64,000 nucleotides of DNA from an uncultured Actinomycetes bacterium (GTDB lineage Bacteria > Actinomycetota > Acidimicrobiia > IMCC26256 > BP-133), in contig CAVRTC010000003.1 of assembly GCA_963723985.1 (NCBI GenBank), positions 55,914-119,913 on the forward strand, read 5' to 3'. The notes beneath the pieces are model-generated. The model was not told the DNA's origin and did not search any database. It was given only the letters and a program-made list of their open reading frames with translations. The position numbers and the translations under genes were made by a program. Positions within the stretch are counted from its first letter, which is position 1; each line of letters opens with the position of its first letter. This document shows, piece by piece, positions 2,623-63,835 of this stretch.

Positions 2623-3809
2623 CGTCCAGGACGACGGATACCTCCGACCTCGAGCGCAGTCTCGATCCCCTGGCACTCATCAATACCGCCTGCCAACAGA
2701 CCGGGCTTGACGACTACGGCGCCGACGAACGGTTTCTTGAGGCGATGACGCGCTGGCTGTCCTCGGTCGCGTCCGAGGGGCGGCTGAACGCCGTCGGCGT
2801 TGCGGCTGTGCAGGGCAATGTCATGCGGGTGCTGATGACACGCCTGCGCTTCTACGACGACCTCAAGAAGCACCCCGAGATCCTCGAGGAAGACGTCTCC
2901 GACCCCGTGATGATCACCGGATTGCCCCGCACGGGAACCACCAAGTTGCAGCGAATTATGTCGTGCGATCCGACCGTGCGGTTCATCCCACTGTGGCTTC
3001 TGATGTTCCCCGCACCCGAACCGGGTTGGAAGCGTGGGGACCCCGACCCCAGGCTCGACATGGCCAAGGCCGCCACCGAGCAGCAGATCCGGCAATACCC
3101 CGACATCCAGCTCGGCCACCCTGTGGCGGCCGAGCTCGCCGAGGAAGAGGCCTACCTCCTCGATCTGACGTTCGAGTCGCCTTTGGCGATCACGCGCCGC
3201 GCTCCGTCATTCGTTTCCTGGTGGCTCGAGCAGCCTCAGGAGCCGCCGTATGAGTTTCTCCGGAGCATGTTGCAGTACCTCCAATGGCAAGCCGGGGGCA
3301 GGCGCGGTCGCCACTTCCTCCTCAAGGCGGTGACTTCGCATTTCGGGAACCTCGACGTCGCAGCCAAGGTCTTCCCGCAGGCGACGATCGTGGTCACTCA
3401 TCGGGACCTGAAGTCGGTCGTGCCGTCAGGTACTCGCTTGCTCGAGCGGGTCCGGCGCACCGTCAGTGATGACGTCGATCCGCTCGATTGCGGCACGTTC
3501 ATGTTCGATTTCCTCAAGCAGAGCGTGGACCGGCATCTCGCACAACGTGATGCGCTCGGTGATACTGCCCGGATTGTCGACATGGCGTATAAGCAGGTCG
3601 ATGCCGATCCGGTGGACGCAGCGAGGACGATCAGTCGCCGACATGGAACCCCGCTGACCCCAGAAGCCGAGCACGCATTGGCGACCTGGGAACAGCGGGA
3701 CCCTCACGGTGGTTCGCACTCCTACTCGCTCGAGCGACATGGATTCACAGAGGCGCAGATTGACGAAGCCTTCTCGGGATACGTTGAGAGATTCCAGCCG
3801 TACCTATAA
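2619..3809 (+). CDS. Sulfotransferase family protein
   Basis: 396 aa. PAPS-binding P-loop-like motif ITGLPRTGTTKLQRIM and a later THRD motif. Start overlaps the upstream stop. Confidence 0.75.
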   Translation: MTSRTTDTSDLERSLDPLALINTACQQTGLDDYGADERFLEAMTRWLSSVASEGRLNAVGVAAVQGNVMRVLMTRLRFYDDLKKHPEILEEDVSDPVMITGLPRTGTTKLQRIMSCDPTVRFIPLWLLMFPAPEPGWKRGDPDPRLDMAKAATEQQIRQYPDIQLGHPVAAELAEEEAYLLDLTFESPLAITRRAPSFVSWWLEQPQEPPYEFLRSMLQYLQWQAGGRRGRHFLLKAVTSHFGNLDVAAKVFPQATIVVTHRDLKSVVPSGTRLLERVRRTVSDDVDPLDCGTFMFDFLKQSVDRHLAQRDALGDTARIVDMAYKQVDADPVDAARTISRRHGTPLTPEAEHALATWEQRDPHGGSHSYSLERHGFTEAQIDEAFSGYVERFQPYL

Positions 3810-3860
3810 GCGCAAGGGAGTCCCTTTGGCTGCACGGGCTTGTCGCATGGGACATGGACA

Positions 3861-4736
3861 ATGAAAGATCACCTTGTGGCGGCCATGAAGCGCCGGCGGC
3901 GTCGCCTTCCTGGCGTCGGCGAGGCAGATTCGAGCAACGAGGGCAGGGGACGTATCGCACTCGTGACCGGGGCATCGTCCGGCATCGGATGGGCGATGGC
4001 GGAACTCTTGGCCGCCAAGGGCTACGACGTTGTTGCCGTGGCTCGCCGGGAGGCACGGTTGTGCGATCTTCAAAAGCAACTCGAGGGCAGATGGGGGGTC
4101 CGGGTGCACCCTTTGGCCTGTGATCTGGCAGACCAAGGCGCTCCCGCCTATATCAGAGACGAAATGTCCCGACGCTCGCTCGATATCGACTTCCTCGTCA
4201 ACAATGCGGGATACGTCGTGTATTCGCCCTATCAAGCGATGCCATGGGAGGACGGCCTGCGGTACATCCAGGTCACCGCGCTTAGCCCGGCGGAGCTCTG
4301 CCGACACTTTCTGCCCGCCATGGTCGACCGGCGATGGGGACGCATCATCAACGTCGCGTCGATCGCCGCAGTCCTTCCTGGCACCCCCATGACGGTTCTG
4401 TACGGGGCGTCCAAGTCGTTCGTGCTCAAGCTCACGGAAGGCTTAGCGGCCGAAGTCGAGCAATGCGGCGTCAACTGCACGGTCATCATCGTCGGCGCGA
4501 CGGACACGGAGATGGTGGAGACGAGTGTGTCGCCCGAGTTTGCCGACGCCCTCATGATGCAGGCGGCGATGATGCGCCCAGAAGCTGTCGCTCGGAAGAG
4601 CTATTCGGCCTGTATCCGCGGGAAGCGGGTCACAGCGCCCGGCTGGCACAACAAGGTCTGGTCATTCGCGACCGTGCATTCGCCGCCAGCGTTCCGATAC
4701 CAGCTGGCGCAGGCATCCGTGCGGTCCCAACCCTGA
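3861..4736 (+). CDS. Short-chain dehydrogenase/reductase (SDR)
   Basis: ALVTGASSGIGWA (TGxxxGxG), NNAG, and YGASKSFV (YxxxK). The ORF opens at 3840 (TTG); ATG 3861 is preferred. Confidence 0.85.
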   Translation: MKDHLVAAMKRRRRRLPGVGEADSSNEGRGRIALVTGASSGIGWAMAELLAAKGYDVVAVARREARLCDLQKQLEGRWGVRVHPLACDLADQGAPAYIRDEMSRRSLDIDFLVNNAGYVVYSPYQAMPWEDGLRYIQVTALSPAELCRHFLPAMVDRRWGRIINVASIAAVLPGTPMTVLYGASKSFVLKLTEGLAAEVEQCGVNCTVIIVGATDTEMVETSVSPEFADALMMQAAMMRPEAVARKSYSACIRGKRVTAPGWHNKVWSFATVHSPPAFRYQLAQASVRSQP

Positions 4737-42693: not shown

Positions 42694-44106
42694 ATGGGCA
42701 GACAGACGCGGAGCCGGCTGGGCAGCCTCGTGGCCGGGGCGGCGGTGATGATCCTCGGCCTGACCGTGCTGCCCGACTCCGGGGCGGCGGACACCCGACC
42801 GGGTCAGGGCCCGACGACGGCTCTTCTGGGGACGGCGACCGCGCAGGGAATGCGGATCACCTACACGGTGCCCGACTTCCTCGTTGTCACCGAGGTCATG
42901 GACGGGGGTGGGCCGGTTGCCCAGGCGGTGCTCGAAACGGGCGGCCAGTCCACGGCGTTCGCCGCCCTGCCCTATCCCGGGGAGAACGGAGTCGGTGGGC
43001 CGGCTCTCGTGCTCGGGCTCCTCGGCCAGTCGCCGCCGGCGAGCTACCCGTTCTACGTCCGGGCCGACTCTACGGTGAATCCCAGCACCGAACTGAAGGA
43101 TCCGAGCGGCTCGTACACCTTGCGGGCCGCGGCCGAAGTCCGGAAATCCGTCGGGACTGCCGACGTGGCCTTCGGGCCGCCCGACCACCCGGCGTCGTCG
43201 GCCACGGCGCACACCGAGGTACTCAGCGCCGCCGACGGCACGATGACCGTGACGGCGGAATCGCGGTTCTCGGGCCTGGCGCTGGGGGAGGGGCTGTTAC
43301 GGATCGCCTCCGTCGAAAGCCGCTCCGTCTCGGTCTACGGGCCGGCCGACGCCGAACCCCGGACCACAACCGCGCTGCTCATCGACGGTGCCCGGATCGG
43401 CGATCAAGCCGTCACGATCGGCCCGGACGGCGTCCACGCCGCGGGAGTGCCCTCACCGGTGCCCACCGGTGGCCCCGGTCCGCTCAACCAGGCGCTGGCC
43501 CAGGCCGGTTTGACCGTGCGGACCGTGTCCGCCGGTCCCGTCGAGGGTGGTGCGACGGCCGATGCCCTCGAGATCAGCCGCGATCAGGGACCCCCCGTTC
43601 CCGGGATGCCCCGGAGCACGCTGAGCCTGCGCATCGGCGGGGCCACCACGGCGGTGAGCGCCGGCAGCACGTCGGCCCTCGTGGGTACCCCTGAGCTTGC
43701 GGCGGACACGCCGGAAGCTCAGGGGAACGCCGACCGTTCCCCGGCCCCGTCCGGCGCCGACCCCGTCGTGGCGGCCCCGCCCCCCAACACCGCCAAGGAC
43801 AACGAGCCCGCAACGACCGGAGCCCGGCCCGCTGCCCCGTCGCCGCGGTCGGCGGCTGGTCCGACCAACGACTTCGGAACCGAGTTCTCCGACAGCTCGA
43901 CGGGGCTCGGTCTGACACCTCCCCCAACGGCCCAGGTCTCCGCATCGCCATCCCCGGCACCATCCCTGCCGCGACCATCGCGCCCGGCGAGTTCCTCGCG
44001 AGCCCTCGCACCGGAGGCCAGGGCCCTGTACGTCCTGCTCGGCCTGGCGGCGGTGGGGACGATCGGGCTCTCGCTCGTCTCCCGCACCCGGACGGCCCCG
44101 TCGTGA
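42694..44106 (+). CDS. Secreted protein with a signal peptide, ~330-aa domain, Pro/Ala-rich stalk and C-terminal TM anchor
   Basis: Signal LVAGAAVMILGLTVLPDSGAA, stalk PAPSGADPVVAAPPPNTAKDNEP.., and tail APEARALYVLLGLAAVGTIGLSLVSRTRTAPS. A paralog fragment lies at 9475..10181. Confidence 0.75.
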   Translation: MGRQTRSRLGSLVAGAAVMILGLTVLPDSGAADTRPGQGPTTALLGTATAQGMRITYTVPDFLVVTEVMDGGGPVAQAVLETGGQSTAFAALPYPGENGVGGPALVLGLLGQSPPASYPFYVRADSTVNPSTELKDPSGSYTLRAAAEVRKSVGTADVAFGPPDHPASSATAHTEVLSAADGTMTVTAESRFSGLALGEGLLRIASVESRSVSVYGPADAEPRTTTALLIDGARIGDQAVTIGPDGVHAAGVPSPVPTGGPGPLNQALAQAGLTVRTVSAGPVEGGATADALEISRDQGPPVPGMPRSTLSLRIGGATTAVSAGSTSALVGTPELAADTPEAQGNADRSPAPSGADPVVAAPPPNTAKDNEPATTGARPAAPSPRSAAGPTNDFGTEFSDSSTGLGLTPPPTAQVSASPSPAPSLPRPSRPASSSRALAPEARALYVLLGLAAVGTIGLSLVSRTRTAPS

Positions 44107-45221: not shown

Positions 45222-45269
45222 AACCGGCGTTCGCCACCGCAGCTAGCCCTGCAGTGATGAACGCCGGTT
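45222..45269 (+). terminator. Hairpin after the operon (11-bp stem AACCGGCGTTC/GAACGCCGGTT, 26-nt loop) followed by TTGGG
   Basis: Read from the sequence. The large loop and weak T-tract make this tentative. Confidence 0.3.
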
Positions 45270-45273
45270 TTGG

Positions 45274-46302
45274 GTGAGGCAGGCTGAGTCGGTGACTCTA
45301 GTACCTGATCCAGACGACGTGCTCGAACTCTTCCTGGGATTCTGGATTTCCCGGACGGTGATGGCCGCGGTGCAGCTCGGAGTGTTCGAGGCGCTGGGGT
45401 CGCCGCCCGCTCTGGAGGGGCTCACGCTGGAGCAGGCCCAGGCGGCGCTCAGCCTGCCGGCCCGTCCCGCCCGGGCCCTGCTCGACACCTGCGTGGCCAC
45501 CGGGTTGCTCGAGAAGGAGGCCGGTCGATACCGCAACTCCCCGCTGGGCGCCCGTTACCTCGCCGCCGGTTCCGAGTACTCACTCCGGAACTACGTCCTC
45601 GACGAGCGGTGGTGCTGGTCCGACTGGGGGAAGCTGGAGGACGCGCTGCGGGCTGACCACCAGCTGCTGCCCGAGGACGCCGAGGGGTATCACGCCTTCC
45701 CCGAGGATTTCTTCCTCGACTTCCTCCACGGCCACTCCCTGGCCATGGGTGAGCGGCTGGCCGCGGCCGTGGACTTCGGCGCCGCCCGGCGGATCATGGA
45801 CGTCGGCGGCGGCTCCGGCGCCGTCTCCATCGCCCTGTGCCGGCGCTTTCCCCACCTCGAGGCCATCCTGGTCGACCAGCCGCCGGTGGCGGCCCGGGCG
45901 GCCGTCCACATCGACGACGCCGGGCTCGGCGGCCGCATCACCACCTGCCCGGCCAATATCTTCGAAAGCGTCCTGCCCGGCGGCTGCGACACGGCCGTCC
46001 TGGCCAATGTCCTCCACGACTTCTCGCCGAGCCGGGCCCAGGAGATCCTCGGCCGGGTGGTGGCCGCCCTGCCGCCGGGCGGCCGCGTCGTCATCCTGGA
46101 GATCGTCCCCGACGAGGATCGGCGGTCCCCGCCCCTGGCTGTGGCGTTCTCGGTGGCCATGATCGTCAACACCGCCGGAGGCGACGCCCACACCGCCTCG
46201 CAGTACCGGGCCTGGCTGGAGGCCGCCGGCCTCACAGGGGTGGTCGTGACCCCGATTCCAGGCCGGATGGTCACGACAGTCCTGGAGGCAATCAAGCCGT
46301 AA
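45274..46302 (+). CDS. Class I SAM-dependent O-methyltransferase (dimerisation domain + MTase)
   Basis: N-terminal winged-helix-like VLELFLGFWISRTVMAAVQLGVFEAL, SAM motif I RIMDVGGGSGAVSIAL, and later LANVLHDF. Confidence 0.85.
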   Translation: MRQAESVTLVPDPDDVLELFLGFWISRTVMAAVQLGVFEALGSPPALEGLTLEQAQAALSLPARPARALLDTCVATGLLEKEAGRYRNSPLGARYLAAGSEYSLRNYVLDERWCWSDWGKLEDALRADHQLLPEDAEGYHAFPEDFFLDFLHGHSLAMGERLAAAVDFGAARRIMDVGGGSGAVSIALCRRFPHLEAILVDQPPVAARAAVHIDDAGLGGRITTCPANIFESVLPGGCDTAVLANVLHDFSPSRAQEILGRVVAALPPGGRVVILEIVPDEDRRSPPLAVAFSVAMIVNTAGGDAHTASQYRAWLEAAGLTGVVVTPIPGRMVTTVLEAIKP

Positions 46303-55746: not shown

Positions 55747-56343
55747 GTGGCCGCGATGGCGCGACCGACCGCCCCCGACCACGACGACAAGGCTGCGGCC
55801 GTCCTGGGCGCCGCCGGTCAGGTGTTCGCTCAGCGGGGTTACGAGGGCGCGACCATGCTCGACGTGGCCCAGGCGGCCGGGTTCTCCAAGGCCGGCGTGT
55901 ACCACTACTTCGCCTCCAAGGAACACCTCCTCCACGGCCTGCTCCAGGGGTCGCTCCAGCAGGTGGTGGCCGATCTGGCGGCGGCCGATCCCGGCGACGA
56001 GGTCGAGCCCGGCGACCGGCTGGCCGCCCTGGTCGACGCCTACGTCCGGTCGTTCTCCACCCGGCTGCGGGTCGTCACCCCGCTGTTGCTCCGCCTCGAC
56101 CTGCTCCGGCCCGAGTGGCGGGCGGAGGTCAAGGCGTTGGAGCGCCAGATCGTCGACCGTTTCGCCGATGCCGCCGGCGCCCTCGGCCACCCCATCTCGC
56201 CCCGGGCGGCCGCCTTCCTGGTGCTGGGGGCGGCCAACTGGACCTACTACTGGTACGACCCTGACGGCGACCTGAGCATCGAGGACCTGGCCCGGGGGGC
56301 GGCGGCCGTCTTCACCGGCGGGCCGGTCAAGGCGAACTCCTAG
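55747..56343 (+). CDS. TetR-family transcriptional regulator
   Basis: GYEGATMLDVAQAAGFSKAGVYHYFASKEHLL. Confidence 0.85.
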   Translation: MAAMARPTAPDHDDKAAAVLGAAGQVFAQRGYEGATMLDVAQAAGFSKAGVYHYFASKEHLLHGLLQGSLQQVVADLAAADPGDEVEPGDRLAALVDAYVRSFSTRLRVVTPLLLRLDLLRPEWRAEVKALERQIVDRFADAAGALGHPISPRAAAFLVLGAANWTYYWYDPDGDLSIEDLARGAAAVFTGGPVKANS

Positions 56344-57762: not shown

Positions 57763-59126
57763 GCCGTCACCGAGGCCAGGTCGCCGGCAAAGCCGGGGTA
57801 CGACGAGGCGACGGCCCGCCAGCCCCGCACGGTGGACGGGCCGTCGCAGGCGTTGGCGGCGATGGCCGCCGCCATGGCGATCCGGTGGTCGCCGTGACTC
57901 TTGAGCAGGGCGGGGCGGGGGGCGCCGCCGGTGATCACGAGTCCGTCCGCCCTGGATTCGACGGCCACGCCCAACTGGGAGAGCTCCTGGGCGATCGTGC
58001 CGATCCGGTCCGATTCCTTCACCCGCAGCTCGGCGGCGTCGGCCACTTCGGTGGCGCCGGCGGCGAAGGCGGCCGCCACCGCCAGGGCGGGGATCTCGTC
58101 GATCACCCGGGGGATCTCGTCGCCCGACATCGTCGTGGCCCGCAGCGGCGAGGCGACAGCCCGGATGTCGCCCACCGGCTCGCCGCCCCGCTCCTCCTTC
58201 ACGGCGACCTCGACGTCGGCGCCCATCCGCCGGAGCACGTCGATGAAACCGATGCGGGTGGGGTTGAGGCAGACGTCTTCCACCACGAGGTCGGAGCCGG
58301 GGGTGATGCAGGCCCCGACGACGAAGAAGGCCGCCGCCGACGGGTCACCGGGGACGGCCAGGTCGATCGGGGTCAGCCCCCCGGCCGCCACCGGCTCGAC
58401 CCGCACGCCGCCGGCCACGGCCTCGAGGCGGGCGCCCATGACCGGGAGCAGCCGTTCGGTGTGGTCGCGGGACAGCGCCGGCTCGGTCACCTCGGTGGCG
58501 CCGGTGGCCTGGAGGCCGGCCAGCAACAGGGCGGTCTTGACCTGGGCGCTGGCCACGGCCAGCTCGTGGCGGAGGCCCCGCAGGCCGCCGCCCCGGATCG
58601 TCAGGGGCGCCAGACGGCCGCCGTCGCGCCCGTCGATATGGGCGCCCATCCGCCGGAGGGGATCCACGACCCGGCCCATCGGCCGGCGGGCGATCGACGA
58701 GTCGCCGGTGAGCACGCTGTGAAACGGCCGCCCGGCCAGGACCCCGGCCAGCAGCCGGATCGAGGTGCCGGAGTTGCCGCAGTCGATCACGGTCTCAGGC
58801 TCGACCAGGCCGCCGAACCCGGCGCCCCGGACGATCAGCACGGGACCGATCCGCTCGCCGGCGACCGCCGCTTCGCCCGGCGAGCCCGCTCCGGCGCGGA
58901 CCTTGGCGCCCAGGGCCTCGATGGCCAGACGGGAGCGGACAACGTCGTCGCCGTCGGCCAGCCACCACAGGCGGCTGGTCCCCGAGGCCAGGGCGGAGAA
59001 GAGCAGGGCCCGGTGCGAGATCGACTTGTCCCCCGGCACCCGCAGCCGTCCCCGCAGCGGCCGGGGGCCGGTGACCGCCAGCTCGGCCGGCAGCCCGTCG
59101 GTGGGCATCGCTTCCGTGGCGGTCAC
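57759..59126 (-). CDS. aroA: 3-phosphoshikimate 1-carboxyvinyltransferase (EPSP synthase)
   Basis: LRVPGDKSISHRALLFSALASG..NSGTSIRLLAGVLA..KESDRI..DHRIAMAAA. Confidence 0.95.
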   Translation of the reverse strand: MTATEAMPTDGLPAELAVTGPRPLRGRLRVPGDKSISHRALLFSALASGTSRLWWLADGDDVVRSRLAIEALGAKVRAGAGSPGEAAVAGERIGPVLIVRGAGFGGLVEPETVIDCGNSGTSIRLLAGVLAGRPFHSVLTGDSSIARRPMGRVVDPLRRMGAHIDGRDGGRLAPLTIRGGGLRGLRHELAVASAQVKTALLLAGLQATGATEVTEPALSRDHTERLLPVMGARLEAVAGGVRVEPVAAGGLTPIDLAVPGDPSAAAFFVVGACITPGSDLVVEDVCLNPTRIGFIDVLRRMGADVEVAVKEERGGEPVGDIRAVASPLRATTMSGDEIPRVIDEIPALAVAAAFAAGATEVADAAELRVKESDRIGTIAQELSQLGVAVESRADGLVITGGAPRPALLKSHGDHRIAMAAAIAANACDGPSTVRGWRAVASSYPGFAGDLASVTA

Positions 59127-60244
59127 CCCAGCTCCCGGCGGGTGGTGTGATAGCCGAGCTCGCCGAGGCCGGTCACGATGGCGTCGGCCCCCGACGCCGG
59201 CACGACCATCAGCAGGACGCCGCCGGTCGGGCCGTGGCTGATGTCGAGGTCGACGATGTTGACGCCGCGGCGGCCGGCCAGAGTGGTCACCTCGGCCAGA
59301 ACACCGGGCCGGTCGGGCACCGGCATCGACAGCTCCACCAGCGGCCCGGCGCTGGCCGCCCGTTCCGGCAGGTTCGACACCTCGGCCCGGGCGATCTCGA
59401 AGAAGTCGAGCAGGGGCCCCCGCTCCTCCGCCGCGACGAGTTCCCGGACCCGCTCCAGCTCCTTCATGTAGCGGTCGAGGACGCCGAGGATCGCCGCCCG
59501 GTTCTCGACACAGATGTCGGGCCAGATGCCGGCTGACCGTCCCGACACCCGCGTCAACGCCCGGAAACTGCCGGCGGCCAACCGGCGCAGCGTCTCGTGG
59601 TTGGCTTCGTCGTCGGTCGCCAGGTGCATGACGGCGCTGGCAGCCAGGTGCGGCAGGTGGCTGACGATGGCCACCAGCTCATCGTGCAGCTCCGGCTCGA
59701 CGGCCATGATCTTGGCCCCGGTGAGGGCGACGAGGTCCCGCACCGCGGTGAACGCCCCAGGATCGGTGGTGGCGGTCGGGGTCAGAACCCAGGCGGCGCC
59801 GACGAACAGATCGGCGTCGGCCCCCTCGATGCCCTCCTCCCCGGCTGAACCGGCCATCGGATGGCCGCCGACGAATCGGGAGGCGGCCCCGCCCACCTGG
59901 GCCTCGACGGCCCGGACGACCGGTGCCTTGACGGATCCGACGTCGGACACGGCTCCGACCCCAGCGTCGAGGGCCGCAGCCACGGCGTCGGCCACCGCCG
60001 ACACGGTGACGGCGACGAAGGCCGCGTCGGCACCGGCGTAGGCCTCGGCCAGGGAGCCGGCGCCGACGTCGATCACGCCCCGATCCACCGCCCGGGCCAG
60101 CCGTTGGGCGTCGGCGTCGTAACCCTGCACCCGCAGCCCGGCCCGCCGCAGGGCGAGAGCGAGCGACCCGCCGATCAGGCCGGTGCCGACCACCGCAACC
60201 GTGCCCGGTGAGTACTCGAATTTCATGCTGCTACTGCTGGCCAT
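59123..60244 (-). CDS. tyrA: Prephenate dehydrogenase with a C-terminal ACT domain (start at 60244 or 60226)
   Basis: VAVVGTGLIGGSLALAL (Rossmann), GGHPMAGS, and an ACT-like tail VPDRPGVLAEVTTLAGRRGVNIVDL. Confidence 0.9.
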   Translation of the reverse strand: MASSSSMKFEYSPGTVAVVGTGLIGGSLALALRRAGLRVQGYDADAQRLARAVDRGVIDVGAGSLAEAYAGADAAFVAVTVSAVADAVAAALDAGVGAVSDVGSVKAPVVRAVEAQVGGAASRFVGGHPMAGSAGEEGIEGADADLFVGAAWVLTPTATTDPGAFTAVRDLVALTGAKIMAVEPELHDELVAIVSHLPHLAASAVMHLATDDEANHETLRRLAAGSFRALTRVSGRSAGIWPDICVENRAAILGVLDRYMKELERVRELVAAEERGPLLDFFEIARAEVSNLPERAASAGPLVELSMPVPDRPGVLAEVTTLAGRRGVNIVDLDISHGPTGGVLLMVVPASGADAIVTGLGELGYHTTRRELG

Positions 60245-60265
60245 CGAATGAAATTCGAGTACTCA
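60209..60265 (-). promoter_or_regulatory. Perfect 18-bp inverted repeat (AT-rich) with a 21-nt loop spanning the aroH stop / tyrA start region
   Basis: TGAGTACTCGAATTTCAT (60209-60226) is the exact reverse complement of ATGAAATTCGAGTACTCA (60248-60265). One arm encodes tyrA MKFEYS; the other begins 1 nt after the aroH stop. Confidence 0.8.
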
Positions 60266-60266
60266 T

Positions 60267-60644
60267 TTATTCCGGAAGGTCGTCCCGCAGGACGCGGGCG
60301 CCTTCGAGGTAGACGTGGTGCAGCTCGTCGCGGCCGCGCTCGCTGTAGAGGTGCATCAGCACCCTCACGCACAACGGCATGCCGTGGGCGATGCCCAGCT
60401 CCCGGGCGCACAGCAGCGGCACGTCGCCGAGCCCCAGTGCCCGGGCCGCCGTCGCCGGGAACTCGCTGGTGACGTCGTCCGTGGCCGTGAAGATGATGCT
60501 GACGAGGTCGTCGTGGTTGACGTCGTTGCGGGCCAGCATCTCCTTCACCAGCCGCTGGGTCTTCTCGGAGACCTCGTCGCGCGTGTCGGCTTCGAGCGTG
60601 ATCGCTCCCCGCAGCGCGAGCAGACGAGGTTCCCGTGCCGTCAT
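60267..60644 (-). CDS. aroH: Chorismate mutase, AroH class
   Basis: LLALRGAITLEADTRDEV..DDLVSIIFTATDDVTSEFPA..PLLCARE.. Internal ATG at 60644 within ORF 60267..60737. Confidence 0.85.
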   Translation of the reverse strand: MTAREPRLLALRGAITLEADTRDEVSEKTQRLVKEMLARNDVNHDDLVSIIFTATDDVTSEFPATAARALGLGDVPLLCARELGIAHGMPLCVRVLMHLYSERGRDELHHVYLEGARVLRDDLPE

Positions 60645-60675
60645 GGCGCGAGCGTATGCGATGACGCCTGGCGGT

Positions 60676-60993
60676 TCAGGCGCTGTGGTTGTCGGGTTGA
60701 ACGGTCGGGGTGGCGCGCCGGGCCAGGAACGCGCCACCCCGCCGTTCTATGTCGAGCGCCTGCTGGAAGGCACGCTGCTGACGCACCTGCGCTCGATCTT
60801 GGGAGCGGTCCTCGAGCCCGGCGATCAAGGCGAACGACCGCTCGGCGGGGACCGGCATCAAGCGGGCACCGGCCAGAGCCTCGTCGCAGCGGTGCCGAGC
60901 CCACCGACTCGCCCACTCTGCAGCGACAACTGCGACTCCGATGCCCACTCCCCACATGACTCCTGCCACGCCACAATGGTACGCAATTCGCAC
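60676..60993 (-). CDS. Hypothetical small membrane protein (105 aa)
   Basis: One TM (GVAGVMWGVGIGVAVVAAEW), then a charged helical tail. Divergent from the XRE gene. TTGACA lies at 60996-61001 in the intergenic region. Confidence 0.35.
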   Translation of the reverse strand: MRIAYHCGVAGVMWGVGIGVAVVAAEWASRWARHRCDEALAGARLMPVPAERSFALIAGLEDRSQDRAQVRQQRAFQQALDIERRGGAFLARRATPTVQPDNHSA

Positions 60994-61141
60994 CTCATTG
61001 ACAAGAACTTCGTCGAAATCAGGTAAATCGAGCCAAAGCTCCGGGGCCGCTCGGCGAAGTGTGCGGGAATGCTTGTAGAAGGACTTACTTTCAAGCAGTA
61101 TCGGAGGGAGTCAACACGGAGAGCGCACGGCGACAGGAGAG

Positions 61142-61549
61142 GTGGGACGCATCGTGGCCGAACCGTCGAAGAGCGAGCAGACGGACGGGGTCGATTGGGC
61201 CGCGGTCGGCCAGTACATCGGTGAGCACCGCCGTCGTCTGGGCCTATCGAAGAACGAGGCCTCCCGGCGTGCCCGGGTGTCGAACACCACCTGGCGCCAA
61301 ATCGAGGCCGGCCAGAACGATCACCCCACCGACGAGACGCTCGTCCGCATGGCCCGGGCGCTCCTCCTCGACCCGGGCGAGCTCATGCGCCAGTGCCAGC
61401 GGCGCTACGTGGAGGCGCCGTCCGTGCGGGATCTGCCGCCGCTCGGGCCGCCGATGGCCCTGCTCGAGGTCCTGGAGTCCGACCGGCGCCTCGACCCCCG
61501 GGCCCGACGGGTCCTCATGGAGCTGTACGACCTGCTGTCCTCACGCTGA
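61142..61549 (+). CDS. XRE-family helix-turn-helix protein (135 aa)
   Basis: IGEHRRRLGLSKNEASRRARVSNTTWRQIEAGQN, the classic Cro/C1-type HTH pattern. Confidence 0.7.
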   Translation: MGRIVAEPSKSEQTDGVDWAAVGQYIGEHRRRLGLSKNEASRRARVSNTTWRQIEAGQNDHPTDETLVRMARALLLDPGELMRQCQRRYVEAPSVRDLPPLGPPMALLEVLESDRRLDPRARRVLMELYDLLSSR

Positions 61550-61958
61550 CCGGGCGTTTCGCCGGCGCCGCCCGGCGCCCTGACGGCAACTCGTCGGGAG
61601 GCGCCATCGACGCCGCCAGACGCATGCGGAGGCGGTTGATCTGGGTGCGGAGCTGGCGGACCTTGCGGTCATGTTCGGTCTCGACGACGGCGACGATCAT
61701 GTCGACCTCGTCGGACTCCGCCGAGTCGGCCGTGTCGCGGAGGTCGACGACCCGCAACACAGCGCGTCGCTCGGGCTCGGGACCGGTGTCGGTCTCGGCG
61801 TCGGTCTCGTAGTCGTATCCGACCGTCCCCACGTTTCGGTCGAGGGTGTCCTGCTGCTCCTCGCACCATTCCTCGAGGAACGCAACATTGTCCTCAATAG
61901 CAGCTACACGCATCGCTAATGCTCTCAGCTGCTGCTGATCCTCGTAAGTTTCGTCCAT
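61515..61958 (-). CDS. Hypothetical acidic coiled-coil protein (147 aa)
   Basis: MDETYEDQQQLRALAMRVAAIEDNVAFLEEWCEEQQD.., a DE-rich centre and a basic helical tail. An AT-rich upstream region lies at 61960-62120. Confidence 0.45.
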   Translation of the reverse strand: MDETYEDQQQLRALAMRVAAIEDNVAFLEEWCEEQQDTLDRNVGTVGYDYETDAETDTGPEPERRAVLRVVDLRDTADSAESDEVDMIVAVVETEHDRKVRQLRTQINRLRMRLAASMAPPDELPSGRRAAPAKRPVSVRTAGRTAP

Positions 61959-62123
61959 CCCCGTCTGCCCGTTGCAGCGAACAGTGCCCCAACACACTCT
62001 TTATCCAACCAGTGCCGCTGTCAACCCAAAAGCCACGACAAACAAATAGGACAGGAAAGAACGATCCATCAACAAATGATTGAGATTCACACAGTGGCGA
62101 CACTCTTGTGCCACAAGGGAATC

Positions 62124-62939
62124 TTAAACCTCAGTGCCATCTCCGGCCTCGGAAATTACAGGCTCGATTGCAGCGTAGAGCGCTCGAATTTCGGCTTGTG
62201 TAAGAGGCCTCCATTGACCCGGAGCGAGGCGGTTCTCGTGCAGTGGCCCGAAACGGGTGCGGACGAGGCGACGAACCGGGTGACCGACCGCCTCGCACAT
62301 CCGCCGCACCTGGTGGTTGCGGCCCTCGTGGATGACGATCTCCAGAGCGGCCCCGGTCGGTGTCGCCTGGGCCAGGCGGGCCCGGGCCGGAGCGGTGCGG
62401 CCGTCGTCGAGGTCGACGCCCTCCCGGAGGCGCCGGAGGGCGGCCCGCCCCGGCACCCCGGTCACCTCCGCCAGGTACGTCTTCGGCACCCCGCGGCTCG
62501 GATGGGCGAGCCCCTGGGCGAGGTCTCCGTCGTTGGTCAGGAGGAGGAGCCCTTCGGTGTCCCAGTCGAGCCGCCCGACGGGGAACACGCGGGGGTCGGT
62601 GGGGACGAGATCGACCACGGTCGGGCGGCCCTCAGGATCGTGGGCGGTGGTGACCACCCTGACCGGCTTGTTGAGCAGGTAGTAGACGAACCCCGACCGG
62701 ACGGGGATGGTGACGCCGTCAACCATCACGTGGTCATGCTCCGGGTCCACCCGCCGCCCCAGCGAGGCCACCTCCCCGTTGACGGCGACCCGGCCTTCCT
62801 CGATCAGGGCTTCGGAGGCCCGCCGGGATCCGAACCCGGCCCGGGCCAGGACCTTCTGGAGCCGCTCACCGCCCTCCGGGGGGACCGCCGGCCCCGGGCC
62901 CTCGGACCCTGGCCCGGTCAATCCACCGGGGCGTCCCAC
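62124..62939 (-). CDS. rluB: 23S rRNA pseudouridine synthase RluB-type (S4 domain + RsuA family)
   Basis: RLQKVLARAGFGSRRASEALIEEGRVAVNG..VGRLDWDTEGLLLLTNDGDLA..KTYLAEV. Confidence 0.92.
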   Translation of the reverse strand: MGRPGGLTGPGSEGPGPAVPPEGGERLQKVLARAGFGSRRASEALIEEGRVAVNGEVASLGRRVDPEHDHVMVDGVTIPVRSGFVYYLLNKPVRVVTTAHDPEGRPTVVDLVPTDPRVFPVGRLDWDTEGLLLLTNDGDLAQGLAHPSRGVPKTYLAEVTGVPGRAALRRLREGVDLDDGRTAPARARLAQATPTGAALEIVIHEGRNHQVRRMCEAVGHPVRRLVRTRFGPLHENRLAPGQWRPLTQAEIRALYAAIEPVISEAGDGTEV

Positions 62940-63835
62940 GCCGGGTCGACGTCGCTCAAGGTCGCCTGACCCGCGCCGGGCCGGGCGGGAGCGGTCCGCC
63001 GCCGGCGGACCGGATCGAACCGGATACCGCCCCGGGAGGACTCGGCCAGCCGGGCCTCGAGCTCCTCCATGACACCTGGATCGGGGACGAGATCGGCCAG
63101 CGCCGGGAGCTTCTCCAGCGATTCCAGCCCCAGGCGCTCGAGGAACAGGCGGGTCGTCCCGTACTGGACCGGATGCCCGACCCCCTCGGTCCGGCCGACC
63201 TCCTCGATGTACCCCCGGTCGAGCAGGCTGCGGACGACGCCGTCAACGTCGACGCCCCGCACCGCCGAGAGCTGGGAGCGGGTCACCGGCTGCTTGTAGG
63301 CGATGACCGCCAGTGTCTCGAGGGCGGCGGCCGACAGCCGGGCGTGGCGGCCTTCGAGGAGGTAGCGCTCGACGTAGGGCGCCAGTTCGGGGTGAGTCTG
63401 GAAGCGGTAGCCGCCGGCCACCTTGACCAGAATGAAGCCGCGGCCGGCGCATTCTGCGGCCAGCAGGGCGCACAGGCCCTCAACCTCGGCGACCGGCCGC
63501 TCGATCAGCTGGGCCAGCACCTGCGGCTCGACCGGTTCGGTGGCGGCCATGAGCACGGCCTCGATGGCCCGCCGCCACTCGTCCGGCTGGCGGGAAGCCT
63601 CCGGCTCCGGTGCCGGTGGCGCGGTGTGGACTGCCACCTCTGGCTCAGGTGTCGCCGGTTCGAAGGCAGCCTCCGGCGCCGCCTCCGTCCCCGCCTCATC
63701 GCCCTCGGGGGGGGCGCCCTCCGACGCCGGGTACTCCCAGTCGTCCAGGTCGTCGTCGTCTGCTCGCACCTCAGCAACGTGCGAGGCCGCGCTCTCGAGA
63801 CCCTCCGGCTCGCCGTTGCTTCGGTGCTCGGTCAT
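62918..63835 (-). CDS. scpB: Segregation and condensation protein B
   Basis: AIEAVLMAATEPV..GFILVKVAGGYRFQT..LSAAALETLAVIAYKQPVTRSQLSAVRGVDVDGVVRSLLDRGYI. ATGA junction with scpA. Confidence 0.92.
   Translation of the reverse strand: MTEHRSNGEPEGLESAASHVAEVRADDDDLDDWEYPASEGAPPEGDEAGTEAAPEAAFEPATPEPEVAVHTAPPAPEPEASRQPDEWRRAIEAVLMAATEPVEPQVLAQLIERPVAEVEGLCALLAAECAGRGFILVKVAGGYRFQTHPELAPYVERYLLEGRHARLSAAALETLAVIAYKQPVTRSQLSAVRGVDVDGVVRSLLDRGYIEEVGRTEGVGHPVQYGTTRLFLERLGLESLEKLPALADLVPDPGVMEELEARLAESSRGGIRFDPVRRRRTAPARPGAGQATLSDVDPAWDAPVD

Follow-up and report, generated by a model that had tools for sequence, protein, structure and literature searches.

A low-copy palindromic repeat carrying its own stop and start codons at an aroH-tyrA junction in uncultured Acidimicrobiia

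The DNA analysed here, referred to as the window, is a stretch of 64,000 nucleotides (positions 55,914 to 119,913 of contig CAVRTC010000003.1, assembly GCA_963723985.1) from an uncultured member of the Acidimicrobiia. On its minus strand, the chorismate mutase gene aroH is followed by tyrA, and genes for EPSP synthase and cytidylate kinase were recognized farther downstream by their Pfam matches. The junction between aroH and tyrA is taken up by an inverted repeat (60209-60265) whose 3' arm forms the beginning of tyrA. Comparison with sequences of relatives identifies it as a member of a low-copy family of dispersed palindromic repeats, 55-61 nt long with AT-rich arms of 18 nt (16-19 nt in other copies) and a loop of 19-25 nt, found in a clade of uncultured soil Acidimicrobiia. 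The coordinates are collected in Table 1.

The two arms are complementary at 18/18 positions and separated by 21 nt, as reported by a repeat finder. Read along the mRNA, the aroH stop codon is followed by a single A (60266), the 5' arm, the loop and the 3' arm, which consists of the codons ATG AAA TTC GAG TAC TCA. Because the arms are complementary, the element has the layout TGA...CAT-loop-ATG...TCA, in which a stop codon opens the 5' arm and a start codon opens the 3' arm; the element therefore carries a portable stop and start. A further in-frame AUG is located in the loop (60244-60242), and the distance from the aroH stop to the 3'-arm AUG is 40 nt. The AUG (60266-60264) of a mini-open reading frame (mini-ORF) of 11 codons abuts the aroH stop, being formed by the A after the stop together with the first two nucleotides of the 5' arm; this mini-ORF spans the 5' arm and the loop, ends at a loop UAG (60233-60231) 4 nt short of the tyrA AUG, and could serve as a relay ORF. 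The 3' side of the stem is followed by CCGGGC. The G+C content of the arms is 33% (6/18) versus 70.0% for the window, and direct reading of the sequence revealed no GGAGG-like Shine-Dalgarno sequence upstream of either ATG. All of this bears out a preliminary description of the locus, which had reported the perfect 18-bp repeat beginning 1 nt past the aroH stop, the MKFEYS codons in its 3' arm, the candidate ATG at 60244 in the loop, arms of 33% G+C in DNA of about 70%, the lack of a Shine-Dalgarno sequence before both ATGs, and a spurious plus-strand ORF that likewise starts with MKFEYS.

Nearly all close TyrA homologues retrieved by a protein search have 360-362 residues and the N-terminus M[GS]TVAVVG; relative to these, the TyrA of the window displays an N-terminal extension of 6-7 residues. 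By this comparison, the MKFEYS codons are element sequence and not native tyrA, and the position of the former tyrA start codon now reads CCG. The Pfam match for tyrA was obtained on the ORF 59123-60244, while aroH probably starts with the ATG at 60644 (125 aa, as in the call for the related contig L063), its ORF reaching 60737.

Table 1. Coordinates of the genes and repeat features at the aroH-tyrA junction of the window.
Feature	Position	Strand	Sequence or match	Remark
aroH, AroH-type chorismate mutase	60267..60644	-	Pfam CM_1, E 4e-40	stop TAA 60269-60267
tyrA, prephenate dehydrogenase with C-terminal ACT domain	59123..60226	-	Pfam PDH_N, PDH_C, ACT	367 aa
5' arm	60248..60265	-	UGAGUACUCGAAUUUCAU on mRNA, TGAGTACTCGAATTTCAT as DNA	begins 1 nt past aroH stop
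Loop, 21 nt	60227..60247	-	UCGAUGGCCAGCAGUAGCAGC	ends typical of the family: UCGAU...CAGC
3' arm	60209..60226	-	AUGAAAUUCGAGUACUCA on mRNA, ATGAAATTCGAGTACTCA as DNA	tyrA codons 1-6 (MKFEYS), start codon 60226-60224
Mini-ORF, 11 codons	60231..60266	-	MSTRISFDGQQ, stop	read from the sequence
Mirror-image spurious ORF	60248..60472	+	starts MKFEYS	by-product of the palindrome

The arm sequence occurs at only two sites in the window even with 3 mismatches tolerated (expected 0.01), and the 18-nt repeat is the longest perfect short-range inverted repeat of the 64 kb. When the window was simulated 100 times with a first-order Markov model, the longest perfect repeat with a loop of 3-60 nt measured 10-15 nt and never 18. 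RNA folding, proposed as a check in the preliminary description, predicted a stable structure for a 121-nt region around the junction (-55.8 kcal/mol, z -4.9) and for the 57-nt element alone (-26 kcal/mol, z -6.7); hairpins of -23 to -32 kcal/mol were predicted in 8/8 copies folded. A fold-back or chimeric assembly artefact in the window contig has to be considered, as fold-back reads can yield perfect palindromes and the exact TyrA sequence of the window is not on record elsewhere. However, homologous hairpins are present in independent ENA, JGI, Logan and NCBI assemblies, at aroH-tyrA in four of them and at hisB-hisH in seven further contigs; they differ from the window copy in compensatory substitutions and in their loops, and the reading frame into tyrA is unbroken. 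Because of these independent assemblies such an artefact is very unlikely, and we regard its probability as negligible. Two other inverted repeats of the window, at 43685-43728 (20-nt arms, 90% complementarity, 4-nt loop) and 45222-45269 (21-nt arms, 86%, 6-nt loop), resemble ordinary G+C-rich intergenic hairpins and are possibly terminators.

Among the close TyrA homologues listed, only three carry an extension matching that of the window (MKLEYSPG, MKSECSS and MIEYSNF...KFEYSQR), and in the DNA of all three (L063, L064 and L065) a homologous hairpin lies right after the aroH stop. A scan of metagenome contigs with a two-arm degenerate pattern matched 8 more contigs. One of them, L074, contains a further aroH-tyrA copy, and two (L067 and L069) carry the element between hisB and hisH, where the hisB stop TGA is formed by the first 3 bases of the 5' arm and HisH starts from the 3' arm with MKFEYS or MKSECS. 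In L068 a copy is located upstream of another gene, while the four copies of L070-L073 each fill the 72-bp gap between a divergent pair made up of an NAD-epimerase-like gene and a second conserved gene. As for HisH, 5/120 close homologues possess an extension, and the element was confirmed in the DNA of all five (L075, L078, L079, L080 and L081, all at hisB-hisH), whereas 106/120 have a compact start with one residue before the conserved IAVLDYG. Taken together, the element was seen in at least four contexts: aroH-tyrA, hisB-hisH, upstream of the L068 gene and within the divergent pair of L070-L073.

Some copies show particular features. In L063 the reading frame runs through the entire element, which forms an extension of TyrA by about 22 residues. 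In the same ENA contig (5001-7508), tyrA is split into an ORF of 315 aa and a separate ACT ORF of 67 aa, and the aroA call is just 155 aa long, which points to frameshift errors, possibly introduced by long-read assembly, or to pseudogenes; single-base details of the L063 element are to be treated with caution. In L070-L073 (e.g., L072 649-733), the element ends 2 nt from the ATG of the NAD-epimerase-like gene, and on its other side it is followed by a conserved CTAGACTGGCCGC and then the ATG of the other gene. The TAGACT in these contigs is -10-like (TANNNT) and precedes that ATG by 6 nt, an arrangement that would suit a leaderless mRNA; its bases also close a 6-codon upstream ORF (MKFECS, then TAG) starting in the 3' arm. 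An arm variant CGGATTT / AAATCCG (MKSECS) occurs at both tyrA (L065) and hisH (L069, L079/L080) on different contigs, which suggests either concerted evolution within a lineage or seeding from one subfamily.

Junctions lacking the element are compact. A TyrA scan of species-representative genomes yielded 62 loci, nearly all labelled Acidimicrobiia or Actinomycetota, and the five closest of them (L001-L005; TyrA identity 84-89%) are repeat-free: L003 and L004 display a TAATG overlap, L002 and L005 a TAG followed by 7-9 nt before the start, and L001 a TAA followed directly by GTG. The nearest homologue of all, P0001 (94% TyrA identity; locus L066), has a GTGA overlap and no repeat, and so does the empty hisB-hisH site of L082 (CTGTGATC). 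Thus, the expectation that the hairpin would be conserved at orthologous aroH-tyrA junctions is borne out in L063, L064, L065 and L074, but not in the nearest relatives of the window. The element appears in these comparisons as a lineage-specific substitute for a compact stop/start overlap. When filled and empty sites are compared, the exact insertion point and any target duplication are obscured by 1-2 extra nucleotides and by mutation of the old start codon (to CCG, CAA or TCG). In L001 (345-365), the tyrA start GTG AGT ACG right after the TAA matches the ATG AGT AC found at the left margin of the element (window 60257-60266); this could be chance, insertion microhomology or the remnant of a deletion from a filled allele.

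In a neighbour-joining TyrA tree, the sequences with the inverted repeat (n=4) fall into four subclades, each beside repeat-free sequences, and the sister of the window is the repeat-free P0001. This patchy distribution would be accounted for by repeated insertion, repeated loss or allele exchange through recombination. A covariance model built from an alignment of 16 copies found a single copy in the window, with a sense-strand score of 75.8 bits against 10.9 bits for the next unrelated match, and over 431 kb from relatives it found no copy except that at the junction in L063. The family appears to be low in copy number. Three further hits were set aside: a weak match of the model in L051 lies inside the aroH coding sequence, an arm-like GAAATTCGAGCGCTC in L063 is a chance match within the rluB coding sequence (QAEIRALY), and a second GAGTACTC, at 45574 of the window, is a chance match in a coding region (GSEYSL).

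The alignment of 16 distinct copies (18-pair stem, 288 cells, 32 arms) allowed us to ask what has been conserved. Standard pairs are formed in 98.6% of the 288 cells, compared with 22-47% after a shift of the 3' partners by 1-3 columns. Double-sided changes are seen at four pairs (1-62 U-A/G-C/C-G; 10-53 G-C/C-G; 11-52 A-U/G-C; 17-46 A-U/C-G), and the covariation score of 0.186 (0.089 in shuffles) was reached by 0/500 shuffles. In L081, the pair involving the middle base of the start codon has changed from A-U to C-G, so that ATG became AGG; pairing was kept while the start codon was lost. The wobbles are unevenly distributed between strands: 13 cells are G.U on the gene-sense strand, and only 2 are A.C, i.e., wobbles of the other strand, both of them loop-adjacent in L063. 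In 12/32 arms GAGTACTC is replaced by GAGTGCTC, always on the same strand and never by GAGCACTC. Arm identity amounts to 0.88-1.00 within contexts and 0.89 between them, whereas loop identity is 0.65-0.74 within and 0.55 between contexts (shuffled loops: 0.46); the four copies of L070-L073 share identical arms, with loops that have diverged by about 35%. Due to the pairing, the compensatory changes, the sense-strand wobbles and the retention of the arms while the loops decay, we conclude that purifying selection maintains the stem as a single-strand hairpin of the sense strand. The simplest and most likely reading is that selection acts on a hairpin of RNA and not of single-stranded DNA.

The same data bear on the second interpretation offered in the preliminary description, according to which the repeat is a double-stranded operator for a DNA-binding protein. 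Such a transcription factor, for example the XRE-family helix-turn-helix (HTH) protein encoded at 61142-61549, would recognize GAGTACTC or use the arms as half-sites. GAGTACTC is itself palindromic, the HTH gene adjoins aroH in both the window and L063, and in L070-L073 the element fills the 72-bp divergent region and abuts the -10-like TAGACT 6 nt before an ATG. However, the arm spacing is not fixed but varies from 19 to 25 nt among copies, and the frequent GAGTGCTC, confined to one strand, would form a G.U pair in RNA and break the symmetry in DNA. Moreover, the copies at aroH-tyrA and hisB-hisH lie within operons with no promoter-like site near the window copy, and the only other GAGTACTC of the window is the one within coding sequence. 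We consider a DNA operator highly improbable.

Selection on a single-stranded hairpin would also be expected of a selfish or near-neutral mobile DNA element (REP/RAYT-, IS200/IS605- or MITE-like) that survives where it does least harm. Stem conservation and mirrored changes would then reflect hairpin-templated repair, or what a transposase needs when it works on a hairpin of single-stranded DNA, instead of a host RNA function, and the tyrA start would be an accommodation and not a regulatory device. Near-identical arms in at least four unrelated contexts, the patchy presence among close relatives, and the loops of L067 (hisH) and L068 (other locus), which are 89% identical and suggest a recent duplication, all fit this explanation, as do the strong conservation of the arms in sequence as well as pairing, the one-strand wobbles, which as G.T pairs suit a single-stranded DNA hairpin too, and the lack of consistent target-site duplications, expected of HUH-type single-strand transposition. 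On the other hand, orthologous copies in diverged hosts keep their arms while the loops decay, which the needs of a transposase do not explain at a fixed locus, and the A-to-G changes are always on the transcribed sense strand. Furthermore, copy number is very low (1 in the 64-kb window, none in the 431 kb of relatives except the L063 junction, and 8 metagenome contigs), and no consistent GTAG/CGTC tag flanks the copies. No related sequence was found in plasmids by BLAST or in viral contigs by the pattern scan, insertion sequence elements and transposase genes not having been searched for. We regard this explanation as rather unlikely, although it deserves consideration.

In our opinion, the best explanation, in which we place about even confidence, is that the hairpin of the dispersed element couples translation of tyrA to that of aroH by RNA unfolding and replaces the overlap of the relatives. 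The element occupies exactly the site at which the aroH stop and the tyrA start overlap or abut in relatives, and its 3' arm gives a new AUG and five codons in frame. In the operon mRNA, this AUG would be buried in a hairpin of about -26 kcal/mol. A ribosome ending aroH at the stop 1 nt before the stem would melt the stem and expose an unstructured, AU-rich start region, and a ribosome on the 11-codon relay ORF would open it likewise. Translation of tyrA would in this way stay coupled to aroH through unfolding, in place of the termination-reinitiation overlap found in relatives. We infer translational coupling as the effect of the selected hairpin, as we do the way in which the element moves or spreads.

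Several features agree with unfolding by the upstream ribosome. The predicted start-enclosing structure is present, with the AUG at the first three positions of the 3' arm, and the upstream stop lies at the base of the stem in both operon contexts. At hisB-hisH, the copies use the stop and the start of the element itself, the upstream stop being arm nucleotides 1-3 (UGA), except in L081, where it is located 5 nt upstream of the stem; at aroH-tyrA, a host stop 0-1 nt upstream of the stem is used, together with the 3'-arm AUG as the tyrA start except in L063. Analogues of the relay ORF were identified in L064, L074 and L065, starting with a GTG in the arm that arises from an A-to-G change and ending in a TGA overlapping the tyrA ATG, while none was seen in the hisB-hisH copies. 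RNA-unfolding coupling is an established mechanism (PMC12548453), and mycobacterial interspersed repetitive units (MIRUs) provide a precedent for mobile repeats inserting at start codons while preserving coupling (PMC12548453; PMC3184786). The coupling interpretation in the preliminary description is thus compatible with the data and strengthened with regard to the hairpin, by the conserved stem, the compensatory changes, the sense-strand G.U pairs and the stop at the stem base; coupling itself is a prediction drawn from them.

A number of observations weigh against this explanation. In L070-L073 the element is situated between divergent genes with no co-oriented upstream ORF, so that unfolding by an upstream ribosome cannot be its only role. 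The 3'-arm start codon has been lost in two copies, being ACG in L063 and AGG in L081, so that masking of the start codon is less conserved than pairing. According to a 2025 review, coupling efficiency drops with distance (PMC12548453), and the gap in the window measures 40 nt; the same review mentions a library screen in which coupling showed a negative correlation with structure just past the stop codon (PMC12548453). The change at the aroH-tyrA junction may have been a gain or a loss; the GTG AGT ACG of L001 could even be the deletion remnant of a filled allele. As G.T wobbles are tolerated in single-stranded DNA hairpins too, the strand asymmetry is no proof of RNA. Finally, 9/18 pairs are invariant across the four contexts, which is beyond what a purely structural stem needs and hints at a sequence-specific partner or at homogenisation.

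Such a partner is central to another explanation, in which the hairpin is an RNA operator whose arm sequence is bound by an RNA-binding protein or small RNA that opens or locks it. This factor would co-regulate a small regulon consisting of tyrA, hisH and the genes next to the copies of L068 and L070-L073. Besides the invariant pairs, the arms being 89% identical between contexts with nearly random loops, the low copy number, the position of every copy at, or at most 13 nt from, a start codon, and the fact that two targets are amino-acid biosynthesis genes can be quoted in its favor. Most relatives, however, run the same junctions element-free, which makes the element non-essential as a regulatory feature; no candidate for the factor emerged, the genes in the remaining contexts are not obviously connected with the synthesis of histidine or aromatic amino acids, and a perfect 18-bp stem is unusual among protein-regulated RNA operators. 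We regard control by a trans-acting factor as clearly unlikely. Equally doubtful, in our view, is its extension to a portable translational operator, that is, a mobile hairpin cassette with its own UGA and AUG whose arms are read by a dedicated trans-acting factor, which may be an RNA-binding protein, a domesticated transposase or a small RNA. If true, the downstream gene (tyrA, hisH or others) would come under common factor-dependent translational control wherever the 57-nt module lands, gene regulation would spread by transposition or recombination of this module, and recognition of the arms by a factor would illustrate how a mobile RNA module can spread regulatory wiring.

A stable hairpin (-26 kcal/mol) exactly between cistrons in two operons, with its sense-strand pairing under selection, could also act in mRNA processing or stability, as an RNase III site or a 3'-exonuclease barrier that makes the stability of the aroH segment independent of that of the tyrA segment, an effect that intercistronic REP hairpins have in enterobacterial operons. 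However, a stem of 18 bp lies at the lower end of the length range of RNase III substrates, the L070-L073 copies are not between co-transcribed cistrons, and a processing function leaves both the stop and start codons in the arms and the in-frame fusion unexplained. Even with REP sequences as precedent, which have been described as intercistronic regulatory elements (PMC3184786), we judge this role improbable.

Four other functions were rejected for the window copy. An intrinsic (Rho-independent) terminator is contradicted by the AT-rich stem, the 21-nt loop and the CCGGGC after the stem, and no terminator-like site was found in 59800-61200. An integron attC site would show core sites and extrahelical bases, and inspection revealed neither GTTRRRY/RYYYAAC cores nor such bases. 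For a leaderless tyrA mRNA starting from a -10 box in the loop, no TANNNT hexamer at the right distance and no promoter-like site was present. The mini-ORF does not qualify as the leader peptide of an attenuator, as it contains zero Tyr codons and its sequence is not conserved among copies.

In the wider neighbourhood of the operon, the XRE-family HTH gene (HTH_31/HTH_3), on the plus strand, is located between rluB and aroH, and an XRE-family HTH gene occupies the same interval in L063, a contig that also carries the inverted repeat (3483-4115, minus strand). Between the HTH gene and rluB of the window lies an ORF of 160 aa without Pfam match (61515-61997, minus strand), and beyond this ORF the most AT-rich stretch of the neighbourhood was observed (62019-62100, 45-52% G+C). 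The sole sigma-70-like promoter match near the operon, TTGTCA-17-TACCAT at 60976-61004 (minus strand), lies about 330 nt ahead of the ATG at which aroH probably starts and would entail a long leader (60645-60975); the region 60992-61105 is AT-rich as well, with a G+C content of <=40% in 30-nt windows.

Few bacterial small repeats both replace the stop/start junction of an operon and become the start of the downstream protein. The natural filled and empty alleles of aroH-tyrA and hisB-hisH in close relatives offer a test of RNA-unfolding versus ribosome-scanning models of coupling in an actinobacterial lineage, as coupling through an overlap of 1-4 nt is contrasted with, if the genes are coupled at all, a 57-nt hairpin, a 40-nt gap and no Shine-Dalgarno sequence. 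The element also matters for annotation, since it yields mirror-image spurious ORFs, false N-terminal extensions and ambiguous starts in metagenome-assembled genomes of Acidimicrobiia.

An Rfam 15 scan of 58000-63000 (E up to 1) returned nothing overlapping 60209-60265, a literature search on the arm sequence retrieved no papers, and one on repeats of Acidimicrobiia retrieved nothing specific. The element is a previously undescribed repeat, a small palindrome with arms encoding stop and start that substitutes for overlapping gene junctions, and it shares features with several known systems. Like REP/BIME and other GTAG/CGTC-tagged repeats, it is a small palindrome (21-65 bp in those families) without target duplications that can lie between cistrons and may act as an RNA hairpin (PMC3733652; PMC3184786). 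REPs, in contrast, are G+C-rich, imperfect, high-copy, GTAG/CGTC-tagged, associated with RAYTs and normally positioned downstream of genes (PMC3733652; PMC3184786); the flanks of our copies vary (TAAA, TGAT, GTAA, GTAG, TCTG, ATAG), the stem is perfect with 33% G+C, and copy number is low. Terminal inverted repeats as in MITEs are present (18-nt arms, perfect in the window copy), and no consistent flanking direct repeats that would represent a target-site duplication were seen in the four contexts, apart from a possible TA...TA in L070-L073.

Neisseria REP2 and Borrelia upstream repeats also lie directly upstream of genes and supply the ATG start (PMC3184786), but they bring a promoter and ribosome-binding site, whereas our element comes without promoter or Shine-Dalgarno sequence. 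Rickettsia palindromic elements and other in-frame repeats are in some cases translated within host proteins, at the 5' end or internally (Delihas 2011, PMC3184786); the Rickettsia elements, however, measure 100-150 bp and reside inside coding regions, while the element described here is much shorter and found at stop/start junctions. In the known cases of RNA-unfolding coupling (MS2 coat-lysis, f1 gene VII-IX and E. coli rpmI-rplT), a hairpin encloses the downstream start and the upstream ORF ends in or next to it, so that the ribosome opens the hairpin (PMC12548453), as would be the case here. Each hairpin of that kind is confined to its own locus, is usually imperfect and hides a Shine-Dalgarno sequence; ours is portable, repeated and Shine-Dalgarno-free, with a perfect 18-bp stem, and its coupling is predicted only.

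The last comparison concerns MIRUs (Supply et al. 1997, as summarised in PMC3184786 and PMC12548453) and was based on their organisation. MIRUs are short (40-100 bp) dispersed actinobacterial repeats at start codons in operon junctions, whose codons or ORFs overlap the flanking stop and start or lie directly against them, which preserves coupling, and filled and empty sites occur among relatives (PMC3184786; PMC12548453). The same organisation is seen at aroH-tyrA and hisB-hisH, with a stop in or next to the 5' arm and a start in the 3' arm, and relay ORFs are found in the window, L064, L074 and L065. MIRUs differ in being non-palindromic, G+C-rich, often arranged in tandem (variable-number tandem repeats, VNTR) and present in about 40-50 copies per genome, and they couple via the -4 overlap of an internal ORF; the element of the Acidimicrobiia, in turn, is AT-rich and low-copy, with a single unit per site, and forms a perfect hairpin whose 3' arm starts the downstream protein.

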